Assembly (NCBI GenBank): GCA_951406725.2
Contig: OX597818.1
Span: 106,082,001-106,146,000, forward strand
Source of the DNA: Octopus vulgaris
Taxonomy: Eukaryota
Reading direction: 5' to 3'
Length of the DNA stretch: 64,000 nt
Positions 7,447 to 61,765 of this stretch are shown piece after piece. A program made the translations under genes and the position numbers. Position 1 is the stretch's first letter. Every line of letters starts with the position of its first letter. The notes under the pieces are model-generated. The model was not told the DNA's origin. It saw only the letters and a program-made list of their open reading frames with translations, and ran no database searches.

Positions 7447-9180
7447 TCAGGTCTTCCTGGGTCTACCTCTTCCACAGGTTCCCTTAACTGCTAGGGTGTG
7501 GCACTTTTTCACACAGCTGTCCTCATCCATTCTCGCCACATGACCATACCAGCGCAGTTGTCTCTCTTGCACACCACATCTGATGCTTCTTAGGTCCAAC
7601 ATTTCTCTCAAGGTACTTACGCTCTGTCGAGTATGCACACTGACATTACACATCCATCAGATTATACTGGCTTCATTCATTGCGAGCTTACGCATGTCCT
7701 CAGCAGTCACAGCCCATGTTTCACTGCCATGTAGCATGGCTGTTTGTACACATGTGTCATACAGTCTACCTTTTACTTTGAGCAAGAGGCCCTTTGTCAC
7801 CAGCAGAAGTAAGAGCTTTCTGAACTTTGCCCAAGCTATTCTTATTCTAGCAGCTACACTTTCAGCGTACCCTCCCCCGCTACTGACTTGGTCACCTAGG
7901 TAATGGAAGCTATCAACTACTTCTAGTTTTCCTCCCTGGAATGTGGTGGAAGTTGTTCTCTGCGCATTGCCAGTGTTTATTGCTCTCAAGCATCTGCCAC
8001 ATACAAAAAACTATCTTCCCCATTAGCCTGCCTTTGATATTACTGCACCTCTTATGTGTCCATACCTTACACTGGGTACATCTTATAGAGTTTCTACCTA
8101 CACCTCTACTACAGATCGAACAAGGCCATCTACCTGAAGGGATTTGTGGTTTGCCTGCCTTCCTACTGATTAGGACTTTGGTTTTAGCTAGGTTGACTCT
8201 AAGGCCCTTCGATTCTAATCCTTGTTTCCACACCTGAAACGTCTCCTCTGGTTCTGATAGTGACTCAGTAATTAGAGCAAGGTCATCAGCATATAGAGGA
8301 GCTTCCAGGGGCATCCTGTCTTGAATTCCTCCATTACTGCCTGGAGGACTATGATAAATAGGAGGGGGCTGAGGACTGAACCTTGGTGGACCCCTACCAC
8401 TACCCTGAATTCTTCAGTGTACTCGTTGCCAACCCTCACCTTACTAACAGCGTCCTTGTACATGGCTCGCACAGCTCTCACTAACCATTCATCTACCCCT
8501 AGTTTCCTCATTGACCACCAGATAAGGGATCGGGGGACCCTGTCAAAGGCTTTCTCCATGTCAACGAAAGCCAGGTACAGGGGCTTATCTTTGGCTAGGT
8601 ATTTCTCCTGCAGCTGGCTTACCAGAAATATGGCATCAGTGGTGCTTTTCCCTGACACGAAACCAAACTGCATCTCATCCAAGCTGACTCTCTCCCTAAC
8701 TAGTTGGGCTATCACCCTCTCCGTAACCTTCATTACCTGATCCAACAGCTTGATACTTCTGTAATTATTTGTATCTAAAGCATCACCTTTATCTTTGTAG
8801 CAGTTGACTATTATGCTGCTACACCAGTCATTGGGTATGACTCCTTCATGTATTACCTGGTTAACTATACGGGTGACTTGGCTATAGCTGACACTACCAG
8901 ATATTTTGAGCATCTCTGCAGTAATTCCTGATGGGCCTGGGGCTTTCCCTGTCTTCATACTTCTAATTGCCTTATCTACAAAGGTACTGTCAACTCGGAT
9001 AGCTGGTCCCTCTGTTGGGTCGACATTCAGCAGACTCTCTTTCTCCCATTCATTTTCTTTATTCAGCAACCTTTCATAGTGGCTTCTCCAAACCTCTCTC
9101 TTTGCATCCTCATTTAGCGCAAGTAAACCATCATCCATGCGAACAAATTTCTCTCCCACCACATCACGATTCTCTCTCAC
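7447..9180 (-). pseudogene. RTE reverse transcriptase plus C-terminal region, frameshifted into four pieces
   Basis: KAPGPSG, NYRSIKLL, QFGF, STTDAIF, FVDMEKAFDRVPR, GVHQGSVLSPLLF, YADD, SFHYLG, LHGSETW, LRWYGHVARM, RGRPRKT. Confidence 0.95.
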
Positions 9181-9690
9181 ACACTGTCTTGCAACACGAA
9201 ATACCTCAAGTCTTTCGTCCTCATGGCGCAGAACATTGGCAAATTTTTTCTTATCTGCTTCCCCTCTGGCTAAATAAACCTGCCTCCTAGCTTCCCTTCT
9301 GGCAGTCTGATTTACTTCCCTGCTACCACTGTTCTACCAGACCTTCCAAGCCTGTTTTTTTTGTCTAATAGCCCTATCAACAACATTGTTCCTCCACCAC
9401 GTTATTGCTCCATCCACAGATCTGGTCAGTGGCTGTCAGCAGGTTGTCCCGTAGGAACCTCCAGTTGTCTTCTGTACCATGTGAAGCTATATCCCCTTCT
9501 ATTTCGTCAAAGGCTTTGTGTAATATGTCTCTAAATCTCTGTCCATATGCGGGATCTTTAAGTCTCCAGACTCTTCTTCTCCTTGCTGGTCGTCTTCTGG
9601 GCATCCATTTAGCCCTTACCCAGTAGTCTATATTGTGGGGTACCAGTCTATATTGAGGGGTACATTCTTCGCCTGGGAAGGTTTTGGCAT

Positions 9691-10434
9691 TTATAAGCAG
9701 CCATCTTTTCCTTTTTCTGGTGAGGATGTAGTCAATCTGATTAGTGTGTCTGCCCGAGTGGCAGGTTTTCTGAAGTTAGTATTGCAAACCATAAGATCAT
9801 TTGCGTCACAGAACTCCAGCAGCCTGGTTCCCTCTTCATTGCAAGAGCCCAAACCATAACCTCCATGTATGCCATGGAAGCCCCCGACATGTTGTCCAGC
9901 ATGTCCATTGAAGTCACCAGCCACAAAGAGAAGGTCCCTGTCATTCGTCAACACGGTAGTCTGCAAGAAGGTGTCATAGAATCGGTCTTTCTGTCCATTG
10001 GGTAGCCCTGGCTGAGGGGCATAGGCCGAGATAATGGTTGCTAACCCATGGTGGGGCATTAATCTAATCTTAAGTATTCTGTCGCATACTCTGACTACCT
10101 CAATTACATTATCTATCCATTTCTCCGCAAGAAGTATACCCACACCCCCAACCCCGTCAGTGTTCCCTGCCCAGAAAATCTTGTACCTGTGTTCTTTGCT
10201 TGTGGGGAACCTAGCAGAACTTCCTCTCCACCTAACTTCTTGGATGCAGCACATATCAACACATCTCCGTTCAAGCATCTCAACAATCTCACCAGACCTA
10301 CCTTTCAGTGTGCCGACGTTGAGAGTGCCAACCCTGAGGGTGTGGGAGGTATGGGCCCTTGAGACCCTGGGACGGGGGACAGCGGCATCCTGTATGTGAA
10401 AAGAGAGCTCGCATTTGGCAGAATTCATAGACAA
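9691..10434 (-). pseudogene. RTE apurinic-like endonuclease (APE) domain
   Basis: Motifs GTLNVGTL, CCIQEVRW, GVGILL, ISAYAP, AGDFNGH, NEEGTRLLEFC. Confidence 0.95.
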
Positions 10435-10684
10435 ACAACAATAGTCTTAAGTTCAACCCGCGTACACTACACTATCATATTTTGCACCGTATGATTACTA
10501 CCTTATATAGTAGGGGGTGGGGGTGGTGTAAAGCCTTTAGAAGTGTTCATGGGAGACAACCAAGGATGACAAAATAGGGAATTCCGGTACAGGTGGACGG
10601 AGTGGGAGGGCGTATTAATTTTGGAGGCAGTTTTTAAGGTTTGGTAAAGACTGTGTGAGAGGTTTAGAGCAACTCAATTTTTTA

Positions 10685-29942: not shown

Positions 29943-30490
29943 TATAGCAGATACCGTTGGCTGTTCAAGTGCGTGTTATTCAATAGAAAAACAGAATGAA
30001 TCACCATAAGACATTTTTGTGTATAAATATATTGTTTATTCCGTGTTCATCTTTTGTGGTGGAAGCATGTAGTATAATTCAAAAACATGTGTGTTTATAT
30101 ACAAAGAAAGTTTTGATTTTTGTTTTTGCACTGAAAGAAGTAACATATGATATTTATATTACAGTATGTGTGCATGTGTGTAAAGAGAACAATTATTTTG
30201 AGAACGTGTGTGTGATAAAATATCTTTGTTTATGAACCATATATCTTGTGTTGAGGTGAATAGACATTCTGCATGGAGCTGCAGAGAAGACATGTGTCTT
30301 TGACCGAAACCTGGCAGGAACTGAAAGTTTTCTACAGTGTAGCTCAGAATGAGGCTGCTGTCTTAGAACGAGTCTACTGTATGAAAGTGGGGCTAGTGTA
30401 TCAAAGCGAGGTTAGCTGTCTTATTGATATTATTTGTCTGCTGTGCAGGTCGACTCACATATTACTATTGTAATATGTAGCTCTGCTACA
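29943..30490. mobile_element. Probable solo LTR
   Basis: Inverted termini TATAGCAGA ... TCTGCTACA (TG mutated to TA), flanked by TATA inside the SINE microsatellite. Confidence 0.6.
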
Positions 30491-30757
30491 TATACAACAG
30501 GTTTCTTTCATTTTCAATCTACCAAATCCACTCACAAGGTTTTGGTTGGCCCGAGGCTATAGTAAATATCACTGGCCCAAGGTACCATACAATGGGACTC
30601 AACTCGAATGTAATTTTCTACAAATAATTTTCAAATGATGTAGATAAAAAATGTACTGGAATTTGTTGGACAAAAATTTTTCAGACAAGGGAAGAGGAGT
30701 TTCAATCAATTCACACATCTTGACTTCTCATGTGTGATGAAAATATCTGATATATAC

Positions 30758-33700
30758 ATCAAATATTTTCATCAAACATTTTCAACAGATATTTTCATCA
30801 AACATTTACATCAAACATTTTCATCAATTATTTTAATCAAACATTTCATCATACACATTCATCAAACATTTTTCATCAGATATATTCCTCAAAAATTTTC
30901 ATCACACATTTTCATCAAATATTATATCACCCATTTTAATCAGGCATTTTCATCAAACATTTTCATCAGACATTTTCAGCAAACATTTTCATCAGACTTT
31001 TTCACCAAATATTTTCAAACATTTTCATCAAATATTTTCATCAGACATTTTCATTAGATATTTTCTTCAAGCATTTTCAGATATTTTCATCAGACATTTT
31101 TCAAAACATTTTTCATCAGACATTTTTATAAAATATTTTCATCAGACATAGATAATTTCATGAAACATCTCATACAAACGTTTTCATCAAATAATTTCAT
31201 CAAACATTTTTGTGAGACATTTTCATGAACATTTCTCATTGGATATTTTCATGAAACGTTTTCATCAAATATTTTCATCAAACATTTTTCATCAGACATT
31301 TTCATCAAGTATTTTCATCAAACATTTTCATCAGACATTTTCTTCAAACATTTTCATCAAACATTTTAATCAGACATTTTCATCAGACATTTTAATCAAA
31401 CATTTCATTAAACATTTTCATCAGATATTTTCATCAGACATTTTCATGAAACATTCCATCAAGCATTATCACACAACATTTTCATCAGACATTTTCATGA
31501 AACATTATTCATCAGACATTTTAATCAAACATTTTCATGAAAATCTTTCATCAAACATTCATCAGACATTTTCATCAAACATTTTCATCAAGTATTTTCA
31601 CCAAATATTTTTATCAGATATTTTAATCAAACATCTTCATTAGATATTTTAAACAGACATTTTCATCAAAGAGATTCTGAAAACAGACATTTTCATCAAA
31701 CATGTCCATCAAAAATTTACAGACATTTTCATGAAACATTTCCATCAAACATTTTCATGAGACATTTTCATGAACATTAGATATTTTTATCAAGAATTTT
31801 CATCAAACGTTTTCATCAAATATTTTCATCAAACATTTTAATCAAACATTTCATTAAACATTTTCATGAAACATTTTCCATCAGACATTTTCATGAAACA
31901 TTTCAACAAACATTTTCATCCGACATTTTCATCAAACATATTCATCAGACATTTTCATCAAACATATTCATCAGACATTTTCTTCAAACATTTTCACCAA
32001 ACATTTTTATCAGACACTTTCATCAAACATATTTCATCAAACATTTTCATCCAACATTTCAAAACATTTTCATCAGAACATTTCTCATTAGATATTTTCA
32101 TCAGACATTTTCATGAAACATTTCATCAAACGATTTCTGGAAGCATTTTCATCAAACATTTTCATCAGACATTTTCATTAGATATTTTCTTCAAACATTT
32201 TTATCAAAGATTTTCATGAAAAATTTTCATCAGACATTTAAAAAAAATTTTCATCAGACATTTTTACAAAATATTTTCATCAGACATTTTCATCATATAA
32301 TTTCATGAAACAATTCATCAAATATTTTCATCAAACATTTTCATCAGACATTTTCCTCAAACATTTTCATCAGACATTTAAAAAATTTTTTTTCATCAGA
32401 CAATTTTACAAAATATTTTCAGACATTTTCATCATATAATTTCATGAAACATTTCATCAAATAATTTTCAAACATTTTCATCAGTCATTTTCTTCAAACA
32501 TGTTCCTCAAACATTTTCATCAGACATTTTCATCACAATTTTTCATAAAATATTTTCAAACATTTTCATGAGACATTTTCATCAAACAATTTCATCAGAC
32601 ATTTTCATGAACATTTCTCAGATATTTTTATCAAGAATTTTCATCAGACATTTTCATGAAACATTTCATCAAACGTTTTCATCAAATATTTTCATCAAAT
32701 ATTTTCAAAAAAATTGTTCATGAAACATTTCATGAAACGTTTTCATCAAATATTTTCATCAAACATTTTCATCAGACATTTTCTTCAAACATGTTCCTCA
32801 AACATTTTCATCAGACATTTTCAGCAAACATTTTCATCACAATTTTTCATAAAATATTTTCATCAAACATTTTCATGAGACATTTTCATGAAACAATTTC
32901 ATCAGGCATTTTCATGAACATTTCTCTTTAGATATTTTTATCAAGAATTTTCATCAGACATTTTCATGAAACATTTCATCAAACGTTTTTATCAAACATC
33001 TTCATCAGACATTTTCTTCAAACATTTTCATCAAACATTTTCATCAGACATTTTCAAATATTTTCATCAAAAGTTTTTATCAAAGATTTTCATCAAACAC
33101 TTTCATCAGACATTTTCATCAAACATATTCATCAGACATTTTCATCAAATATGTTCATCAGACATTTTAATCAAACATTATAATCAGACATGTTCATAAA
33201 ACAATTTCATCACAATTTTTCATCAAATATTTTCATCAAACATTTTCAGACATTTTCATCAAACATGTTTCTCAAATATTTTCATCAGACATTTAAAAAA
33301 TTTTTTTTCATCAGACAATTTAAAAAAATTTTTTTCATCAGACAATTTTACAAAATATTTTCATCAGACATTTTCATCATATAATTCCATGAAACATTTC
33401 ATCAAATAATTTTCAAACATTTTCATCAGTCATTTTCTTCAAACATGTTCCTCAAACATTTTCATGAGACATTTTCATCACAATTTTTCATAAAATATTT
33501 TCATCAAACATTTTCATCAAACAATTTCATCAGACATTTTCATGAACATTTCTCAGATATTTTTATCAAGAATTTCCATCAGACATTTTCATGAAACATT
33601 TTCATGAAACATTTCATCAAACGTTTTCATCAAATATTTTCATCAAACATCTTCATCAGATATTTTCATCAAACATGTTCATCAGACATTTTAATCAAAC

Positions 33701-34319
33701 ATTATAATCAGACATGTTCATAAAACATTTTCATTACAATTTTTCATCAAACATTTTCATCAGACATTTTTCAAAACATTTTCATCAGACATGTTTATAA
33801 AATATTTTCATAAGACAGTCATTAAATATTTTCATGAAACATTTCATCAAACGTTTTCATCAAATAATTTCATCACACATTTTCATCCAACGTTTTCATC
33901 AGATAGTTTCAGACAATTTCATGAACATTTCTCATTAGATATTTTTATCAAGAATTTTCATCAGATATTTTCATGAAACATTTTCATGAATCATTTAGTC
34001 AAACGATTTCATCAAACATTTTCAGGAAACATTTTCATCAGACATTTTCTTCAAATATTTCCATCAAACTTTTTCCTCAGACATTTTCAGCAAACATTTT
34101 CATCACACGTTTTCATCAAACATTTTCATCAGACATTTTCATTAGATATTTTCTTCAAACATTTTCATCAGACATTTTAACCAAACATTTTCATCAGACA
34201 TTTTCATCAAACATTTTAATAAAACATTTTCATCAAACAATTTCAACAGACATTTTCATGAACATTTCTCATTAGATATTTTTATCAAGAATTTTAATCA
34301 GACATTTTCATGAAACATT
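30758..34319. repeat. 13-bp AT-rich satellite (CATTTTCATCARA)n with higher-order structure
   Basis: Direct reading, roughly 270 degenerate units. It generates all the KHFHQTFSS ORFs. Confidence 0.97.
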
Positions 34320-36378
34320 TAACCCTAACCCTAACCCTTACCTTAACCCTAATTTTAACACTAACCCTAACCATAATCCAAACCCTAACCCTAACTACTA
34401 ACCCTAAACCTAACCCTAACCCGAACCCTAACCCTAATTCTAACCCTAACCCGAAACCTAACAATAACCCTAACCCTAACCATAATCCTAACCCTAACCG
34501 TAACCGAAACCCTAACCCCAACCCTAAACCTAATCCAAACCCTAACCGTAACCCTAACCCTAATTGTAACCCTAAACCCTAACCCTCACCCTAAACCTAA
34601 CCCTATACCTAACCCTAAACCAAACCCTAACCCTAACACTCACCTTAACCCTAACCCGAACCCTAACCCTAACTTAACCCCTAATGCTAACACTAACCCT
34701 ATCCATAACCCTAAACCTAACCCCAACCCTAACTCTAAACCTAATTGTAACCTTAACCCTAACCTTAAATCTAACCGTAACCCTAAACCAAACCCTAACC
34801 CTAACCCTGACCCTAAACCTAACCCTGACCCTAAACCCTTACCCTAACGCTAACCCTAACCCTATTCCTAACCCTAACCCTAGCCCTAAACCTACCCCTA
34901 ACCCTACCCCTAAAGCCAGCCGTAGCCCTAGTTCTAGCCGTAGCCCTAGATCTAGCCCTAACCCTAGTTCTAGCCCTATCCCTAACGCTAACCCTACACC
35001 TAACCCTAACCATAACCCAATCCCAAACCCTAACCCTAATCCTAACCCTAAACCTAAGCCTAACACTAACCCTAAACCTAACCCTAACCCTAATGCTAAC
35101 CCTAACTCTAACCCTAGCCCTAAACCTACCCCTAAATCTAGCCATAGCCCTAGTTCTAGCCCTATCCCTAACCTCAACGCTAACCCCAACCTCAACCCTA
35201 ACCCTAACCCGAATCTTAACCGTAACCGTAACCCTAAACGTAACCATAACCCTAACCCTGACCCTAACCCTTACCCTAACCTTAACCCTAACCATAACCC
35301 TACACCTAACCCTAACCATAAGCCAAACCCTAACCCTAACCCCAACCTTAACCCTAAACCTAACCGTCACCAGAATCCAAACCCTAACCCTAGCGCTAAC
35401 CCTAACCCTAGCCCTAAACCTACCCTAACCCTCCCCTTAAAGCTAGCCCTAGCCCTAGTTCTAGCCCTATCCCTAGTTCTAGCCCTATCCCTAACCGTAA
35501 CCATAATACTAACCCTAACCCAAACCCTAGCCCTAGCCCTAGCTCTAACCCTAATCCTAACACTAACCCTAACCTTAACCCTAACCCTAACCCTAACCAT
35601 AAGCCAAACCCTAACCCTAACCGGAATCCAAATCCTAACCCTAATGCTAACACTAACCCTAGCCCTAAACCTACCCCTAAAGCTAGCCCTAGCCCTAACC
35701 CTAGTTCTAGCCCTATCCCTAGCCCTACACCTAACCCTAACTGTAACCATAATACTAACCCTACACCTAACCCTAACCCTAATCCTAACACTAACCCTAA
35801 TCCTAACCATAACCCTAACCCTACCCCTAAACCTAGCCCTAACCCTAACCCTAACCCCAACCTTAACCCTAAACTTAATTGTATCCCTAACCCTAACCCA
35901 AACCTTAACCCTAACCGTAGCCATAACCCTAAACCAAACCCTAACCCTAACCCTAAATCTAACTCTACCCCAACCCCTAACGCTAACCCTATCCATAACC
36001 CTAACCCTAACCCTGAACCTAACCCTAAAGCTTACCCTAACCCTAACCCTAACCCTAACCGTTACATTAACCCCAACCCTAAACCTAACCCTAACCCAAA
36101 ACCTAACCCTAACCTAAACCCTAACCCAATCCCTAATCCTAGCCCTAAACCTAACCCTAACCTATCCTGAAACCTAACCCTAACCCTATCCCTAAACCAA
36201 ACCGTAGCCCTAAACCTAACCCTAAACCTAATCTAACCCTAACCTTAACACTAACCCTAGCCCTAACGCTAACATTTAACCTAACCCCAACCCTAACCCT
36301 AAACCCAACCCAACCCTAACCCTTAACCCCAACCATAACCCCTAACCCCACCCTAACCCCTAACTCTAACTCTAGCCC
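34320..36378 (-). repeat. Interstitial degenerate telomeric array (TTAGGG)n on the minus strand
   Basis: Roughly 340 CCCTAA units with variants CCCTAG, CCGTAA, CCATAA, ACCTAA, TTCTAG. Confidence 0.97.
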
Positions 36379-37626
36379 AAAGATATCAAAGAGTGTGCCG
36401 AAAGAGATCAAAGAGTGTGCCGAAAGAGATAAAAGAGGGTGCCGAAAGAGATCAAAGAGGGTGCCAAAAGAGATCAAAGAGGGTGCCGAAAGAGATCAAA
36501 GAAGGTGCCGAAAGACATCAAAGAGAAGTCCCGAAAGAGATAAAAAAAGGTGCCGCAAGAGAGGAAAGAGATCAATATGGGTACCGAAAGAGATCAAAGA
36601 CGGTGCCGAAAAAGATAAAACAGGGTGCCAAAAGAGATAAAACAGGGTACCAAAAGAGATAAAAGAGGGTGCCGAAAGAAATCAAAGAGGAGTCCCGAAA
36701 GTGATAAAAGAGGGTGCCGAAAGAGATAAAAGAGGGTACCAAAAGAGATAAAAGAGGGTGCCGAAAGAGATCAAAGAGGAGTCCCGAAAGTGATAAAAGA
36801 GGGTGCCGAAAGAGATCAAAGCGGGTGCCGAAAGAGATCAAAGCGGGTTCCGAAAGACATCAAAGCGGGTGACGAAAGTCATCAAAGAAGGTACCGAAAG
36901 GGATCAAAGAAGGTGCCGTAAGACATCAAAGAGGATGCCGAAAGAGATAAAAGAGGAGTCCCGAAAGAGGCCGAAGAGTGTGCCGAAAGAGATCAAAGAG
37001 GGTGCCGAAAGAGATCAAAGAGGAGTCCCTAAAGAGATGAAAGAGGGTGCCGAATAAGATCAAAGAGGGTGCCGAAAGAGATCAAAGAGGAATCCCGTAA
37101 GAGAGCAAAGGGGGTCCTGAAAGAGATCAAAGAGGGTGCCGAAAAAGATCAGAGAGGGTGCCGAAAGAGATCAAAGAGGAGTCCCGAAAGAGATCAAAGA
37201 GGGTGCCGAAAGAGATCAAAGACGGTGCCGAAAGAGATCAAAGCGTGTCCCGAAAGAGATCAAACAGGAGTCCCGAAAGAGATCAAATTGGGTACCGAAA
37301 GAGATCGAAGAGTGTGCCGAAAGAGATCAAAGAGGAGTCCCCAAAGAGATCAAATAGGGTGCCGAATAAGATCAAAGAGGGTGCCGAAAGAGATCAAAGA
37401 GGAATCCCGTAAGAGAACAAAGGGGGTCCTGAAAGAGATCAAAGAGGGTCCCGAAAGAGATCAAAGAGTGTGCCGAAAGGGATCAAAGAGGAGTCCCGGA
37501 AGAGGTCAAAGAGGGTGCCGAAAGAGATCAAAGAGGGTGCCAAAAGAGATCAAAGAGGGTGCCGAAAGAAATCAAAGAGTGTGCCGAAAGTGATCACAGA
37601 GGGTGCCGAAGGAGATCAAAGAGGGT
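36379..37626. repeat. 22-bp purine-rich satellite (GAGGGTGCCGAAAGAGATCAAA)n
   Basis: Direct reading, roughly 57 units; bounded by CCCTAA repeats on both sides. Confidence 0.97.
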
Positions 37627-37645
37627 CCCTAAACCTAACCCTAAC
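37627..37645 (-). repeat. Short telomeric run
   Basis: ccctaaacctaaccctaac. Confidence 0.85.
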
Positions 37646-39477
37646 TACATACTAAAGGGAGATAACTACAAAATATCTTTTAGAGTTGCATATTACAATT
37701 TAATAATGTAACTCTAAAAAGGAAGACGCGACACATAACTACAAAATCCTCTAGAGTTACTTCACATCCATATAATTATTTTATCACTATTATTAAATTA
37801 TGACGATGGAAGTAAGTTTAGAAAGGCAAGGGAAGTAACCTTAGGAAGGGAGATAACTACAAAATCTTCCAGAGTTACTTCCCTTACATAAAATTACGAT
37901 ACGACTGTTATTAGATTGTAATAGAGAAGGGAAGTAACTCTATAATATAATACTCATGACGCATACACTTTTACTCTTTTCCTTGTTTAGTCATTTCACT
38001 GTGCCCATGCTGGAGCACAGCCTTTTCTAGAGCAAATAAACACCAGGACTTAATCTACGTCAGTCTAGTATTTATTCTGTTGGTCTTCTTTTCCCGAAAG
38101 GCTAAGTTAATGGAGTGTAAAAAACACCAGCATCGTTTGTCAAGCGGTTTTGGGGACACAGAAACATACATATAAATATCTATATGTATATACATATATG
38201 TCTCACTCTCTATATATATTTATATCTCTCTCTCTATATATATATCTATATCTATCTATTTCTATATCTATCTATCTATATATATATATATATCAATCTA
38301 TATACGACGGGCTACTTTCTGTTTCCGTGTACCAAATCTACTCAGAAACTTTGGTCCGTCCGAGGCTATATTGGAAGACACTTGGCCATGGGGCCACGTA
38401 GTTGGACTGAACCAGAAACCCCGTGATTGGAAAGCAAGCTACAGATGCAACCACCTTGGGTATGGGTGCACTGTGCTCACACACGTACAAACAGCCACAC
38501 GTCCGCACTCACGCATATAGATACATGCAAAGACGCAAACTCTTAGCTATTTATGTTTTAAATATGTTGACCTTAAAAATGCGACATTCTGAAAACATAG
38601 TATGAGTTTGTAGGTCAGCCGAAGAGTGTGTGAGCTTGTGCTTTCATTTCTGTCTGTGTGCGCGTGCGCATGTGTAATAGAGTGTTTCCAGTTCATACCT
38701 TTAAATGTGTGCTCGTGTAAAACTGTTTTAATTTCTGAGTGTATTTATGTGTGTGTGTGTGTATGTGTGTTTATTTCTGTGTGTGTTGTACATATATGTA
38801 TATATAAATATATAAGTACAAACACCCACACAGATTTTAAGACACTCACATACAGAACTATATATATATATACGTTAATACGCCTCTTTATCCATCGAAC
38901 ATAACGTGAAATCCGATGTTTGTGAGTTCACGTCCCCGTAACTTAGCGTTTCTGCAAAAGAGACCTATACATTAAGTACTACGCATACAAAGAATAAGTC
39001 CTGGGGTCGATTTCCTCCACTAATACACCACAATTTAATAACAATAATATAATAATATACAAGGTAAGTATATCTATATAATATTTTGTAGTTATCTCAC
39101 ACAAATATGTGGTTAACGAGAGATAGGGTAAGGGTTACTTGCATATTATATTTATTATGATTAAATTATCATAGGTAAGGGAATTAACTCTTGAAGATAT
39201 TTGGTATCATAATAAAGACGTGACACATACACTTTTTCGCTTTTCCGTGTTTTAGTCATTTGACTGTCACCATGCTGCAGCACCGCCTTTTCTAGAGCAA
39301 ATCGACACCAGGACTTATTCTTTGTAATTCTTTGTAAGCCCACTATTTATTCTATCGGTCTTCTTTTGCCGAACCGCTAACTTACGGTGACGTAAACACA
39401 CCAGAATCGGTTGTCAAGCGATTTTGAGGACACAAACGCAGACAGAAACATAGACACACACATACATATGTGTGTGC

Positions 39478-42420: not shown

Positions 42421-43242
42421 CACACACACAAACGAAAAAAAACACGCAGTCGCTCAAACACACGACAGACACAGAAATAAAAACACTCACACACAAACAC
42501 TGAAATGAAAATACCCACACACACTCACATAGAAATGAAAATACACAGCTACACATTCACACACACACACATGCAGACAAACACAGAAAGGAAAACAGTT
42601 ACACACCTACACACGCACACACAAACGTACGCGCCCACACACAGAAATGAAAACAGTTACACACTCACACATAAAACCCTAACCCTAACTCGCACACACA
42701 TACAATTTCTTCAGAATGTAACGGTTTTAGGGTCAACATATATAAAGCATAAATAACTACAAATGTTCATCTTTGCATGTAACAGAGCGACAAAGTGTAT
42801 AGTACAACTACGTTTTCAAAGGAGATAACTACAAAATATCTCTAGAGTTACTTCCCTTGCATATTACAACTTAACAATAACTATAAAGCAAAGTAACTCT
42901 AGAAGATATTTTGAAATTATATCCCTTATAAATGTAGTTAGCGGGACATAACTACAACATATCTTCTACAGTTACTTTCCTTACATTTAAAGTATATTAT
43001 TACTATTATTAAATTCAGACGTGATACACTTTTACTCCTTTGACTGTGCCTATGCTGGAGCACAGCCTTTTCTAGAGCATATCGACACCAGGACTTATTC
43101 TTCGTAAGCCCACTATTTATTCTATTGGTCTCCTTTTGCCAAGTCGCAAACTTACGGTGACGTAAACACACCAGAATCGGTTGTCAAGCGATTTGGGGGA
43201 CACAAAAGCAGACAGATTAATACACACACACACACATATACA

Positions 43243-43296
<54 letters not shown>

Positions 43297-44617
43297 CATA
43301 TATACGACAAGCTTCTTTCTGTTTCCATGTATGGGTGAAACAGACTTTCGCGGTCGGTCACATTAGCCGATGAGACCACCTTGAGTATGTGTGGACTGTG
43401 CTCACACACGCACAAATACCCACACTTCCGCACTCATGCACATAGATACATGCAAAGACGCAAACTCGTAGCTATTTATGTTTCAAATATATTCATCTTA
43501 AAACCGTGACATTCTGAAGAAATGATATGAGTCTGTAGGTCAGCCAATATGTGTGTGTGTGTGTGTGCTTTCACTTCTATGTCTGTTTGCGCGCGCGTAT
43601 GTCTGTGGATTTTTGCTCACCAACAACAATGTACTGGGTTCAATCCAACAGCGTGGCACCTTCGGCAAGTGTATTCAAATATACCCCCGGGCCAACCAAA
43701 GTATTCTCAGTGGAGTTGGCAGAGGGAAACTGAAAGAAGCCCATCGTATATATGAATATCGGCGCAGGAATGGATATGTGGTAAGTAGTTTGCTTACGAA
43801 CCACATGGTTTCAGTTTCATTCCCACTGCCTCGCATCTTGTCCAACTGTCTTCTACTGTAGCTCCGGGCCGAAAAAATCCTTGTGATTGGATTTGGTGGA
43901 AGGAAACTAAAAGAATCCCGTCGTATATATGTTTAAATATATGTGTATGTGTGTGTGTTCGCACTCGAAGGGGACATGAGCATACACGCACGAACCATCA
44001 TACATAAAAATGCAAGTTCTCTTACAAGGGAAAGAACTCCCATTCTATCCCTTAAATTTTCCGAGATATATGAGTAAAATCCTTTCCTTTAACTAATTTT
44101 AGTATTATATATTTGTAAGGGAGCCAACTCTCCATACATCCCATAGAACCTATTATTATTGAAACACTAATTACGTTTCCTAATATTAAATTGTATTACT
44201 ATCAATAAAAGGACGTAACTCTTGTTATATGTGTAATTGTCGCACACACACAAACGAATAAAAACACAGTCGCTCACACACACGTACACACAAATAAGAA
44301 CATTCACACAAACACAAATTTAATAATAAACTAATATGGATGGGAAGTAACTCTAGAAGATATTTTGAAATTATATCCCTTAAATATGTAGTCAGCGGGA
44401 TATAACTACAACCTATCTTATACAGTTACTTTCCTTACATACAATTATATTATTAACGTAAGGGGTATTAGCCATCTGAATGTGGTTAGCCACTGGGGTG
44501 TTACTGATGCTTTTAGCCCCAGGCGATCAACGTCACCAGAAGGACTTTAGACACTATCTCAGTGCCCTTGTGTTATTTTCAAAGGGAGATCATCCTCCCT
44601 CGAAGACCCGAGTACTA

Positions 44618-44662
44618 CATACGGACTATAGTTTCAAGGTAATTGCCTCTCGTCAACGCATG
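44618..44662 (-). ncRNA. Minimal type I hammerhead ribozyme motif (mirror copy)
   Basis: Reverse complement of 44820-44864. Confidence 0.8.
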
Positions 44663-44819
44663 GCAAGCACCGGTCTTCGATGAAGGAGTCCCCTTGCAAA
44701 TAATATATAACGTTTTTCATTGTTTTCAGACAGTTTTTCTACATCAGTGACAGTGGTTACTGTGAAAAACGTTATATATTATTTGCAAGGGGACTCCTTC
44801 ATCGAAGACCGGTGCTTAC

Positions 44820-44864
44820 CATGCGTTGACGAGAGGCAATTACCTTGAAACTATAGTCCGTATG
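44820..44864 (+). ncRNA. Minimal type I hammerhead ribozyme motif (C3U variant)
   Basis: CATGCG-TTGACGA-GAGG caatta CCTT-GAAA-CTATAG-TC^-CGTATG; palindromic stem III ACTATAGT, GUC triplet. Confidence 0.8.
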
Positions 44865-47800
44865 TAGTACTCGGGTCTTCGAGGGAGGATGACCTCCCTT
44901 TGCAAATAACACAAGGGCACTGAGATAGTGTCTAAAGTCCTTCTGGTGACGTTGATCGCCTAGGGCTAAAAGCATCAGTAACCCCCCCCCCAGTGGCTAG
45001 CCACATTCAGATGGCTAATACCCCTTACGTTGTCGAGCGGTTATTGTTTATATCTCGTTCAGAGATTTATTATTGTTTTAATTATATTATTACTATTATT
45101 AAATTTAGACGTGACACACTTTTACTCGTTTTATTTATTTGACTGTGCCCATGCTGGAGCACAGCCTTTTCTAGAGCATATCGACACCAGGACTTATTCT
45201 TTATAAGCCCACTACTTATTCTATCGGTCTTCTTTTGCCGAACCGCTAATTACGGTGACGTAAACGCACCAGAATCGGTTGTGAAGCGAATAATGGGACA
45301 CAGAAACGTACACACATATATATTTAAATTTCTATATGTATATACATATATCTATCTATCTATATGTATATATATATATATATATCTTTATCTATAAATA
45401 TACCTGTATATACATCTACCTATATATATCTATATCTCTCTCTCTATATATATCTATATATCTCTACCAATCTATATACGACGGGCTACTTTCTGTTTCC
45501 GTGTACCAAATCTACTCAGTAACTTCGGTCTACCCGAGGCTATGTTAGAAGACACTTGCCCAAGGGGCCACGCAGTTGGACTGGAGCATAAACCCCGTGG
45601 TTGGAAAGCAAGCTAAATACCACGGCCACTCTTAATGCTATATATATACCAGGACTTATTCTTTGTAAGCCCACTATTTATTCTATCGGTCTTCTTTTGC
45701 CGAATCGCCAACGTACGGTGACGTAAACACACCAGCATCGGTTGTGAAGCGATTTTGGGGACACAAAAGCAGACAGATAAATACACAAACACATACATGT
45801 GTGTATATATATATATATATTCATATATACGACAAGCTTCTTTACTGTTTCCGCGTACCAAATCCACTCACAAAGCTTTGGTCTGTCCGAGGCTATAGTA
45901 GAACACTTGACATTAGTGCCACGTAGTGGGACTGAACCAGAAACCATGTCTTTGGTAAGCAATATACTTACCGCAAAGCACTCATACGGGTATATATTTT
46001 CACAAACAAGTTAATTTCTATAGTCATAAATATTGCACATCCGAGAGATCTCCGAATGAGACCAATCATGGCCGATCCAGTTATGTAGATACGGGGGGCA
46101 TTGGGTGCTTAACACTCGCAAATAGACTATCAGCCCCCTCCACGCCAGTATGAGAATTTCTTTTATCCACTTGTGAAATTAATACATTGTCGCCATATGA
46201 TAAAAATATTAGCAACATCTGAAGTCACTAAAGGTGCAATAAATTGAACTTCTTTTCATTTAGTAGCTAGTGATTTGAAAATGTGGGTATCTTGGAGTTG
46301 GTTAAAATGTTTGTTGTAGCTGTAATTGTCGCACCCACACAAACAAATAAAAACACTCAGTCGCTCACACACGTACACACAGAAATAAAAACTCTCTCAC
46401 ATACACACTGAAATGAAAATACCCACACACACAAACACTGAAAAAAATACACACTCACATACGCCCAAACACACACACACATAGAAATGAAAATACACAG
46501 CTACACATACAAACACTCACACACACGGACAAACACAGAAATGAAAACACAGTTACACACCTACACACACACACACTCGAACACACAGAAATGAAAACAC
46601 TCACTCACACAGGCACAAACACACACACACATAGAAATGAAAACTTAGCAACCACATGGCTTTGGTTATGTCCCACTACGTGGCACTTTGGGCAAGTGAC
46701 TTCTAATATAGCCTCGGACAGACAAAAGTTTCTGAGTGGGTTTGGTACATGGAAATAGAAAGAAGCCCGTAGAATATATGAATATATATATATGTATTTA
46801 TGTTTCTGTGTCCCCAAAACCGCTTCACAACTGATGCTGGTGTTTACGCTCCCGAAAATTGCGGTTCGGCAAAGAGGACAAATGTCTTGCAAACAACTTG
46901 CACAAGCAAGTGCTACCAGTTAAAAGCTCCGTATATCGGAAGCTAGCAAGTGTATGGGGTCATCAGGAGAGAATGCGCGCCGTTTCGGGGCCTACCTCCC
47001 GACGGCATCAATGCGCACCGAACCACCTCACTGATATGAGGCTCCGCTTGCTAGATCAGCTGGTTATGAAGAACTCAATATACTTCTAGCCATCGCTCGT
47101 CGTCTCTTTTTAACCTATAGAATAAGTCCTGGTGTCGATTAGCTCGACAAAAGGCGGTGCTCCAGCATGGGCACAGTCAACTGACACAAACAAGGAAAAG
47201 AGTAATTGTGAACGTGTCACCTCTTAAATATACAAAATACCTTGTAGAGTTACATCTCTTGCAAATTATACTTGAATGATATTACTAATATAGTCATATG
47301 CAAGGGAAATAACTCTAGAGTGCATACTGCACTTATCTCCCGTTAACTACATATTTCAGAGGTATAACTACAAATTATATTCTTGAGTTAGTTCCCTTGC
47401 ATATTCATTATTTAAATTATTATTTGTAATGGAATTAACTCTAGAATATATTTCATATTTATCTCCCCTAAATATGTAGTTATCGTAATATATACTTTGT
47501 CGCTTTGTTACATTCTTTCAGTTATTTCACTGCGGCCATGCTGGAGCACCGCCTTTAGTCGAGTAAATCAACCCCAGGACTTATTCTATAGGTCTCTTTT
47601 GCAGAACCGCTAAGGTAAGGTGACGTTATGTTCGATGGATAAACAGACATGTTAACGTGTATATGTATATACGTAGAAACACGATACACACAGATTTTAA
47701 AACTCACACACGCATACATACACACAGTTACACAGTCACGCACCGCAATGAAAACACACATCAAGTATTCATGTATATAAATATATATATGCATCTTGTA

Positions 47801-58089: not shown

Positions 58090-59400
58090 ACTGTTGTACA
58101 TGTGCACCTTCCACACTCAAAAACTATTTTGCCAGTTAACCTTCCTTTGATATTGATGCGCCTGTTATGAGTCTATAGCTTGTACCGGATAATCTTATGA
58201 AGTTTATACCAATACCTTTCCTACAGATCGAGCAGGGCAATCTACTTCAAGGGATTTGAGATTTATCTGCTCTCCAACTTACTAAGACTTTGGTTTTTGC
58301 TAGATTAGCTCTAAGACTCTTTGACTCTAGATTTTGCCTCCATGGTTGAGATTTCTTCTCCAGTTTGGGTAAGGAATTGATTATAAGAACAAGGTCATCA
58401 GCACAGAGGATCTCCCAGTGGTAGCATGTCTTAAATTCCTCTGTTAATGCCTGCAGGACTATGATGAACAATACGGGGCTGAGGACTGATCATTGGTGAA
58501 CCCCTACTTGTACACTGGCTATACCTGTTAGTAATCTTCACCTTTCTGACAGCATCCCTGTACTTGACCTGTACAGCTCCCACCAAACACTCATCTATCC
58601 ATAGCTTCTGCATTGACCACCAGATAAGGGAATGGGGGACTCTGTCAATGGATTTCTCTGTGTCAACAAATGCCAGGTACAGAGGTTTCTTTTTGGCTAG
58701 ATATTTCTTCTGCAGTTGCCTAACTAGGAATATAGTGCTGGCACAAATCCGAACTGCATTTAATCTACTCTAATATTTCTCTCCCTAACTGATTGAGCTA
58801 TGACCTTCTCCGTGATTTTCTCCAACTTGTCCAGCAGTTTGATGCCTCTGTAATTATTCCTGTTCAAGGCGTCAACTTTGCTTTTGTAGCAGTTGACTAT
58901 GATGCTGCTAAACCAGTCGTTGGACATGAATCTCTTGTTGAAAATTTGATTAACTATATGGGTGGCATAGCTGTATAGTCCGCCAGATATTTTAAGCATC
59001 TTAGTGGAAATTCTTAATGGACTGGGGGTTTCCCCTGTCTACATGTCCTTAATTGCTTTATCTACTAAGCTACTGTCGATTCGGATAGCTGGTCCCCTCA
59101 GTTGGGTCAACATCTAGCAGAAGACTCTCTTCCTCCCTTTCAGTTTCCACATTTAGCAGTTTTAACAATGGCATTTCCAAGCCTCTTTTTTGGCAGAATC
59201 ATTACATACATGTAAACCATTATCCATGCAAACACATTGTATGACCTTATGATTTTCTCTCACAAACTGTCTTGCAATCAGTAACACTTCAAGTCTTTGG
59301 TGCTCATGTCATTTTTGCTACTCCCTTGGCTAGATATACTTGTCTCTTAGCTTCTCATCTGGCTATGTGATACAGTTCCCTGCTACCCCTATTCTTCCAC
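58090..59400 (-). mobile_element. Degenerate RTE LINE RT region
   Basis: NYRGIKLLD, CADDLVL, NLAKTKVL, LPCSIC, FECGRC. Confidence 0.9.
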
Positions 59401-60684: not shown

Positions 60685-61060
60685 GTAAAGAAAATAGACT
60701 ACATCGACTCCCAGGATGGTAAGCTAGAGGTAGTTGGTAGCTTTCTTTCTTTAGGTAGCAATGTCAATAACACATGTGGATGCTCTGAGAGTGTAGCAGG
60801 GAGAATAAGAATAAGCTGGGCAAATTTCAGAGAGCTCCTACCTCTGGTGACAACAAAGAGCCTCTCTGTCAGAGTGAAAGGTAGATTGTATGATGCTTGT
60901 GTATGAACCACTAAGCCACATGGCAGTAACGTGTGCTGTGACCGCTAAGGACATGCCTAGATCTGAAAGAAAGGAAGCTTGTAAGATTCGCTGGATGTGC
61001 AATGTCAGTGTGCCCGTACAAGAGGGAGTAAACATCTTGAGAGAAAAGTTGGGCATGTAA
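60685..61060 (+). mobile_element. RTE ORF C-terminal fragment
   Basis: GKLEVVGSF, RIRISWANFRELLPL, VKGRLYDACV, RWMCNVSV. Confidence 0.85.
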
Positions 61061-61074
61061 AATTAGGAATGTAA

Positions 61075-61765
61075 TACTTCTCGAGTTCTGATAGTGACTC
61101 AGCAATTAGAGCAAGGTCGTCAGCATAGAGGAGCTCCCAGAGGCATCCTGTCTTGAATTCCTCTGTTATTGCCTGGAGGACTATGATAAATAGGAGGGGG
61201 CTCAGGACTGAACCTTGCTGGACCCCTACCTCTACTCTGAATTCTTCACTGTACTCGTTGCCAACCCTCACCTTACTGACAGCGTCCCTGTACATGGCTT
61301 GCACAGTTCTCACTAACCATTCATCTATCGCTAGTTTCCTCATTGACCACCAGATAAGGGATCGGGGGACCCTGTCAAAGGCTTTCTCCATGTCAACAAA
61401 AGCCAGGTACAGAGGTTTAATTTTGGCCAGGTATTTCTCCTGGGAAACAAAGTCATAGTCTCTATGTATGCCATGGAAGTCCCCTGCATGTTGTCCAACA
61501 TGCCCATTGATGTTGCCAGCCACAAAGAGAAGGTCTCTGTCACTCGTAGACAAGGTAGTCTGCAAGAAGGTGTCAAAAATCAGTCTTTCTGGTCATCAGG
61601 TAGCCCTGGCTGAGGGGCATAGGCTGAGATGATGGTTGCTAATCATTTCTAATCTATTCTAAAGTATTCTATAACAAACTCTATCTTGATTACCTTATCA
61701 ACCCATTTCTCTGCAAAAGTATACCCACACCCCCGACCCCATCAATATACCCTGCCCAGAAACAT
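61075..61765 (-). mobile_element. RTE LINE with internal deletion joining APE to RT
   Basis: FVAGNINGHVG (APE) runs in frame into QEKYLAK...DMEKAFDRVPR...QGSVLSP...YADD. Confidence 0.9.

Follow-up and report, generated by a model that had tools for sequence, protein, structure and literature searches.

A 64,000-nucleotide stretch of the Octopus vulgaris genome (assembly GCA_951406725.2, contig OX597818.1, positions 106,082,001 to 106,146,000 of the forward strand; hereafter the window, which lies on G000:C5 of a 2.8 Gb genome) carries at 44443–45092 a mirror-image insertion with a hammerhead ribozyme motif in each arm. An earlier note, made from the letters alone, had described it as a non-autonomous, retrozyme-like unit inserted in the manner of Penelope-like elements (PLEs). 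The insertion is bracketed by two copies of a 12 bp target-site duplication (TSD), AATTATATTATT, at 44443–44454 and 45080–45091, an assignment based on the sequence, on the single copy at an empty paralogous site and on a family-wide TSD test described below. The 12-mer occurs once near 42990, within a paralogous local duplicate without the insertion (42868–43207, + strand; empty site near 42986–43002) that aligns to both insertion flanks; a 13th A of the TSD is ambiguous. Contigs bridging the inversion junction were searched for and none was found. One contig joint across the insertion has the letters of the local empty paralogue and is therefore no evidence for an empty allele.

Between the TSDs lie two inverted arms, at 44455–44719 (− strand, 265 nt) and 44763–45031 (269 nt), which are 43 nt apart and differ by six substitutions and a 4-nt indel in a C run, a divergence of 2.3% that is comparable to that of other family copies. 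The arms, the TSD and the empty site reported in the earlier note are all present by alignment, as is its C-run indel, with six substitutions in place of its five or so. The 43-nt segment was correctly measured and wrongly called a spacer: it is the first 43 nt of a full 353-nt monomer at 44720–45072 (+ strand), of which the apparent tail is the last 48. This tail, at 45032–45079 (+ strand; monomer positions 313–360), has its outer end at a fixed site, 'A', and the right arm, spacer and tail together make one full monomer plus 7 nt. The left arm is tail-less, corresponds to monomer positions 44–312 and ends outwards at a second fixed site, 'B' (position 312). The insertion holds one monomer unit per strand. 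As had been claimed, it has no coding sequence; the longest stop-free frame is 67 codons, and 66 in a trimer.

The right arm contains a minimal type I hammerhead at 44820–44864 (+ strand), with stem I at 44820–44825/44859–44864, the core TTGACGA at 44826–44832, stem II formed by GAGG/CCTT with GAAA, the palindromic ACTATAGT, a palindromic stem III, ACUAUAGU, and a GUC site with a predicted cut after 44858. It has a U3·G8 core pair and a G10.1·U11.1 wobble at the base of stem II. The mirror hammerhead of the left arm, located by motif scan, occupies 44618–44662 (− strand; core start 44656), and the hammerhead consensus would place its cut between 44624 and 44623. A long imperfect helix at 44779–44909 (+ strand) extends stem I; it was confirmed by folding and shows compensatory changes across 22 copies. 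Motif scan and folding therefore bear out both the hammerheads and the extended stem I of the earlier description. A search of Rfam at E ≤ 5 matched no hammerhead family and returned only hairpin-like microRNA models, below their gathering scores.

Monomer family and its hammerhead fold

A genome search with the monomer gave 129 matches from the best 40 scored of 2667 candidates, many of them head to tail at a spacing of about 355 nt (353–362 nt where tandem copies were aligned), so that the tandem copies which the earlier note proposed to look for do exist. Tandems reach 3.5 units in the window subfamily and about 10 in a sister. The unit of the family is therefore the 353-nt monomer without an open reading frame (ORF), present in hundreds of copies and often in tandem, and not the palindrome. 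It is a non-LTR (non-long-terminal-repeat) retrozyme: a tandem monomer within 150–450 bp, a type I hammerhead in each unit, no coding sequence, and dispersed copies with TSDs of more than 4 bp were all found. The core, the stems and the palindromic stem III are retained across subfamilies down to 67% identity. A literature search that covered part of the published main texts gave no paper on this cephalopod family; repeats of this kind may be listed in supplements.

Contigs from four runs guessed to be RNA, whose type is uncertain and which are uninformative on strand, ends, circles and editing, cover the monomer wholly or for the most part. One of them has a joint going back 353 nt, where a tandem and a circle look alike, and in the same contigs A>G differences number 2–4, not above G>A (4–9). 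A 385-nt contig from another organism (run X18, record 26; window 44719–45075) spans the whole monomer with eight differences, A8 and C11.1 among them; a closed loop of 355 nt would account for its length, and a tandem array would give the same. At L110:3072–3119, L110:6652–6699 and L006:1157–1189, short pieces of the monomer stop precisely at position 139, where cleavage is predicted; L110 was found by a pattern ending there, which is a biased route. At L112 (G000:C1:94322000–94326500) a tail-less arm has been amplified within a 1.38-kb tandem of four.

Conservation of the core across copies, on which the earlier note had staked its reading, was found genome-wide, with 389 exact core matches against six for the reversed pattern; the motif is therefore not due to chance. 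A second core pattern gave 696 matches and its reversed control none. In an alignment of 22 copies picked across subfamilies, 96.7% of cells are paired and 10 of 35 pairs show changes on both sides, compared with 35–49% paired in slid controls, a contrast that is inflated by the relatedness of the sequences and by the derivation of the structure from the same set. Stem III is palindromic in five spellings across subfamilies (CTATAG, CTGCAG, CCGCGG, CCGG and CTCGAG). Judged from these comparisons, the ribozyme fold is under selection and its helices covary across subfamilies. A palindromic stem III is also what is expected of a hammerhead that acts as a dimer (PMC4209133).

The core pair between positions 3 and 8 varies. 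A hand count of the first 100 of the 696 matches gave 52 U·G, 43 U-A, 3 C·A, 1 C-G and 1 U·U. The subfamilies nearest to the window copy have a U3-A8 core, and the 'U3C revertant' proposed earlier as a test construct presumes a C3 ancestor that this relationship does not favour. Sister families with periods of 353 and 359 nt have the canonical C3-G8 core and the same two fixed ends; those at L225–L249 (e.g. G000:C1:20002278–20004542) share 66–74% identity with the window monomer. For 49 of the 133 full-length units, a tree requires six changes among four 3-8 states, but since it is unrooted and one lineage sits on a long branch, no order of core changes is claimed. A U3·G8 pair carries a catalytic cost. 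With this pair and G10.1·U11.1, the window subfamily may cut slowly. PMC7151607 mentions naturally occurring U3 variants whose rates are lower. The predicted monomer fold pairs core bases G5-A6-Y7 with the GUC site (window 44826–44858), a possible off state that dimer formation would relieve. The genome also contains further, unrelated C3-G8 hammerhead families, many of them among 1068 matches (22 in controls).

Insertion footprint and a candidate partner

The footprint was surveyed in 110 sampled insertions, of which 65 are two-armed and head to head. Arm lengths range from 45 to 1232 nt with scattered inner junctions, and of 159 arms 68 are longer than one monomer, with as many as 3.5 units in direct succession. 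The outer ends, by contrast, fall at two fixed sites 43–48 nt apart, position 312 (tail-less) and about 355–360 (tailed). The relaxed BLAST census extended some arms too far and wrongly scored two loci or more, L044 and L088 among them, as one-armed. The ends were therefore assigned anew from their motifs, after removal of three duplicate loci, which left 107 insertions. Among the 35 insertions in which both ends could be classed, 33 pair a tailed with a tail-less end, one has two tails and one has none. TSDs of 10–12 bp flank all 12 classable sites outside microsatellites, compared with 1.9% of 264 control pairings. The targets are TA/ATT runs in 23 of 35 cases and AT-rich in the remaining 12, figures for which there is no genome-wide background for comparison.

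By analogy, the tailed/tail-less pairing with TSDs is the known footprint of PLEs, whose insertions have been described with the same layout (PMC8557442; PMC3846280). With purified PLE protein, both strands were nicked and extended, and synthesis began at two RNA positions that delimit the tail (PMC11167929). The mirror-image shape was thus likely left by Penelope-type retrotransposon enzymes. Taken together, the tandem family, the conserved core, the two-armed ends and the TSDs uphold the earlier description of a non-autonomous, retrozyme-like, PLE-type insertion, and the locus is very probably one insertion of a non-LTR retrozyme, a 353-nt noncoding and often tandem repeat whose minimal hammerhead fold is conserved. 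The enzyme that copied it in trans was likely Penelope-like and of Neptune type, with reverse transcriptase (RT) and GIY-YIG domains.

In the proposed mechanism, tandem source loci would be transcribed and the enzyme would nick both target strands 10–12 nt apart. One cDNA would be primed at each nick, one at the tail end and the other at position 312, and both would stop at variable points before being joined head to head to give the palindrome. For the window copy the prediction is a dead end: each strand has a single ribozyme, which its own antisense arm would mask. As a locus it is unremarkable and probably inert.

Several enzymes of the required type are available in the genome. A PLE survey, covering about ten families drawn from the best 150 scored of 6136 GIY-YIG candidates, found several young elements with RT and GIY-YIG domains in open frames of 775–781 aa and a CX2-5CxxC motif, which has been assigned to Neptune and Nematis (PMC8557442). 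Inspection by eye of their terminal repeats showed hammerhead-like motifs with a U3-A8 core. Young Neptune-type families lie at L153–L158, L159, L161, L163 and L316, and in family A an upstream 479-aa ORF without a Pfam match precedes the 781-aa RT-GIY-YIG ORF. A protein search with a family-C fragment returned only active PLEs. L174 is a retrozyme inserted in a family-C-like PLE copy. Two other apparent links to a PLE were rejected: a candidate element with an ORF between pseudo-long terminal repeats (pLTRs) owed its two cores, 3.6 kb apart, to local duplication of a 48-nt fragment, and a 70% match near PLE L159 is a separate, old retrozyme copy and not part of that PLE.

The search for an autonomous partner that the earlier note had called for therefore produced young PLEs and one informative hybrid, and no sequence shared with the monomer. 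At L018:1512–2940 (G000:C18:60215365–60216790), a full tailed monomer forms the left arm. A fold-back of 22 nt and a stutter of 9 nt separate it from the second arm, which is the 3' third of PLE family F and ends at the tail-less site of that family. No retrozyme remainder was found downstream of L018. Among 30 loci of family F itself, all five two-armed copies pair tailed with tail-less ends. Its tail measures about 42 nt and its arms diverge by 36/1522 (2.4%), against 2.0–2.3% in the retrozyme, a match in age and tail length; a near-full-length copy is present and is frameshifted. On these sequence features, family F, which is Neptune-type, is a candidate partner.

Several observations weigh against this assignment and against the footprint evidence behind it. 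The monomer has no sequence similarity to PLE families A–F, and a single hybrid among 110 insertions is therefore all that points to the partner. A junction search gave no further hybrid among the best 40 scored of 3637 candidates, the TSD of L018 is AT-rich and imperfect, and L018 could represent two separate events at one spot. The census is biased to the best-scoring, hammerhead-bearing copies, and 72 of its 107 insertions have fewer than two classable ends. A bolder proposal is that a dimeric Neptune-type enzyme primes both target strands at once, possibly with a different RNA for each arm; L018 would then be a direct record of retrozyme and autonomous partner in one event, with RNA shape rather than shared sequence as the basis of recognition, while the superfamily would have moved its 3-8 pair through C-G, U·G and U-A as it spread. 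This proposal is tentative and is considered rather doubtful as a whole.

Alternative explanations

The template could be a circle, produced by dimeric hammerhead cleavage and ligation, or an uncut multimeric transcript of the same element copied by the same enzyme, in which case the hammerhead would not be needed in each round of copying. In 49 young loci, the units of one insertion agree in subfamily alleles at 88 of 100 sites and in 15 rare variants, and divergence is 2.0% within insertions and 4.0% between them. Allele sharing and the lower internal divergence fit one source per event and are no proof of a circle. At the remaining 12 of the 100 polymorphic sites the units of an insertion disagree, several arrays have variants common to only some units, and in a sister array of ten cores from a U3-A8 subfamily (L255; G000:C4:13620700–13624400) two unit types alternate, all of which speaks against a single circular monomer. 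The alternation at L255 suggests a dimeric template or later unequal exchange, and exchange after insertion could have mixed units in other arrays as well. Routine cleavage is also called into question. Only three of 159 5' ends lie within 5 nt of the predicted cut (5.0 expected); the ends neither favour nor avoid the cut site, and linear cleaved monomers are therefore not the main template. The abundant window subfamily has wobbles at U3·G8 and G10.1·U11.1 where its sister subfamilies have Watson–Crick pairs. In an anole PLE, hammerhead mutants did not impair insertion and unprocessed RNA was the main in vitro substrate (PMC11167929), and eight of nine Xenopus retrozyme dimers showed no cleavage (bioRxiv 10.64898/2026.07.22.740005). 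Set against the uncut multimer are the conservation of core, stems and palindromic stem III to 67% identity, the agreement of all units of an insertion in most alleles and the circles made by coral, mussel and axolotl retrozymes (PMC7229834). The two templates are about evenly balanced, the uncut multimer having slightly less than an even chance.

The remaining alternatives concern the element itself rather than its template. The copies could be stumps (solo pLTRs) of an autonomous PLE yet to be found and not a self-standing retrozyme. Their layout is that of truncated PLEs, and the survey covered only the families named above; yet the long monomer-into-monomer arms are not accounted for in this way, and homologous coding sequence adjoins none of the 110 insertions on the upstream side, the unrelated hybrid L018 excepted, so that solo pLTRs are an improbable source. 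Nor is the element an autonomous PLE, having no RT and GIY-YIG ORF between pLTRs. The earlier note had itself read the palindrome as a switch with a function on both strands, giving either self-cleavage or a 265-bp double-stranded RNA (dsRNA) for ADAR or Dicer. An intact motif is present in both arms and read-through RNA would form a near-perfect long hairpin; the whole insertion is predicted to fold as a single hairpin of −524 kcal/mol, and dsRNA could form if the locus were transcribed. The switch itself, however, is not supported. The head-to-head geometry puts the antisense arm ahead of the ribozyme on both strands, and no single RNA carries both ribozymes, which prevents formation in cis of the dimer required by minimal hammerheads (PMC4209133). 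The family shows scattered arm lengths and junctions, the two arms have drifted as in other copies, and none of the 122 window ORFs contains a host gene domain in Pfam. The variable arms and their ordinary drift argue for a by-product, and a functional switch is highly unlikely. Less credible still is an assembly fold-back artefact or a MITE-like (miniature inverted-repeat transposable element) DNA transposon with long inverted repeats. The lack of a contig across the inversion junction would suit an artefact, but the arm differences, the TSD with its empty paralogue and the recurrence of asymmetric ends and variable junctions at dozens of loci do not; a MITE or other DNA transposon was rejected because it would have symmetric terminal inverted repeats and a fixed length.

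Elsewhere in the window, the 122 ORFs matched in Pfam only RT and endonuclease pieces of LINEs (long interspersed nuclear elements) and gave two sub-threshold hits. Broken LINE-type elements with RT lie on the − strand at 7916–10446, which also has the endonuclease pieces, 58250–58489 and 61008–61592. The region 30000–38000 is strongly skewed in composition (GC skew to −0.79, AT skew +0.43) and probably consists of satellite arrays.

Comparison with known systems

The analysis adds the three-state series of 3-8 cores and the hybrid insertion. Until now, animal retrozymes have been tied to PLE enzymes by co-occurrence and pLTR similarity (bioRxiv 10.64898/2026.07.22.740005). The insertion ends, the TSDs and one hybrid now point to a specific Neptune-type partner, and the family matters modestly. 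It also supplies two exact RNA start sites to which the in vitro assay of PMC11167929 can be applied. With C-G, U·G and U-A cores side by side, ribozyme rate can readily be compared with transposition success and, if the reading of the core series is true, these cores form a natural series on whether transposition needs cleavage. Hundreds of hairpin-forming insertions could, if transcribed, also be incidental sources of dsRNA.

Judged by sequence, every testable feature of metazoan non-LTR retrozymes is present in the octopus family, which belongs to this known class and is inserted in PLE fashion. It shares with the described members (PMC7229834; bioRxiv 10.64898/2026.07.22.740005) ORF-less tandem monomers of 150–450 bp (350–390 in mussel, 330/350 in axolotl), one type I hammerhead per unit, a GC content below 50%, TSDs of more than 4 bp and a proposed dependence on PLEs. 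It differs in its minimal PLE-type hammerhead with a noncanonical 3-8 pair and a long, closed stem I extension. Inverted arms and two fixed ends are not described in the available portions of those papers, with no hits for 'inverted' in PMC7229834, and circles have been shown there, whereas in the octopus family a circle is a candidate template.

Insertions of endonuclease-bearing PLEs, with an inverted pLTR and a 30–40-bp tail (PMC8557442; PMC3846280), resemble it in their partial tandems, in the head-to-head inverted truncated copy, in the tail at one end, in TSDs of 8–10 bp and (TA)n targets, and in having non-autonomous multicopy derivatives such as MRC1. In contrast, the octopus element has no ORF and no sequence in common with any PLE examined, a tail of 43–48 nt and TSDs of 10–12 bp. 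The minimal hammerheads of PLEs (PMC4209133) likewise have a palindromic helix III that implies dimer action, as well as a U3-A8 variant; opposite-strand pairs of them, 100–700 bp apart, are already in print for Schistosoma. Here, however, C3-G8, U3-A8 and U3·G8 each mark abundant subfamilies of one repeat superfamily, and helix II is 4 bp without an extra base at its 5' end. The closest biochemical parallel is the Anolis Poseidon PLE (PAc) studied in vitro (PMC11167929), in which both strands are nicked and extended, targets are AT-rich and two RT start sites bound the tail; PAc is an autonomous Poseidon with its hammerhead at the start of the ORF, whereas the candidate partner of the octopus retrozyme is Neptune-type.

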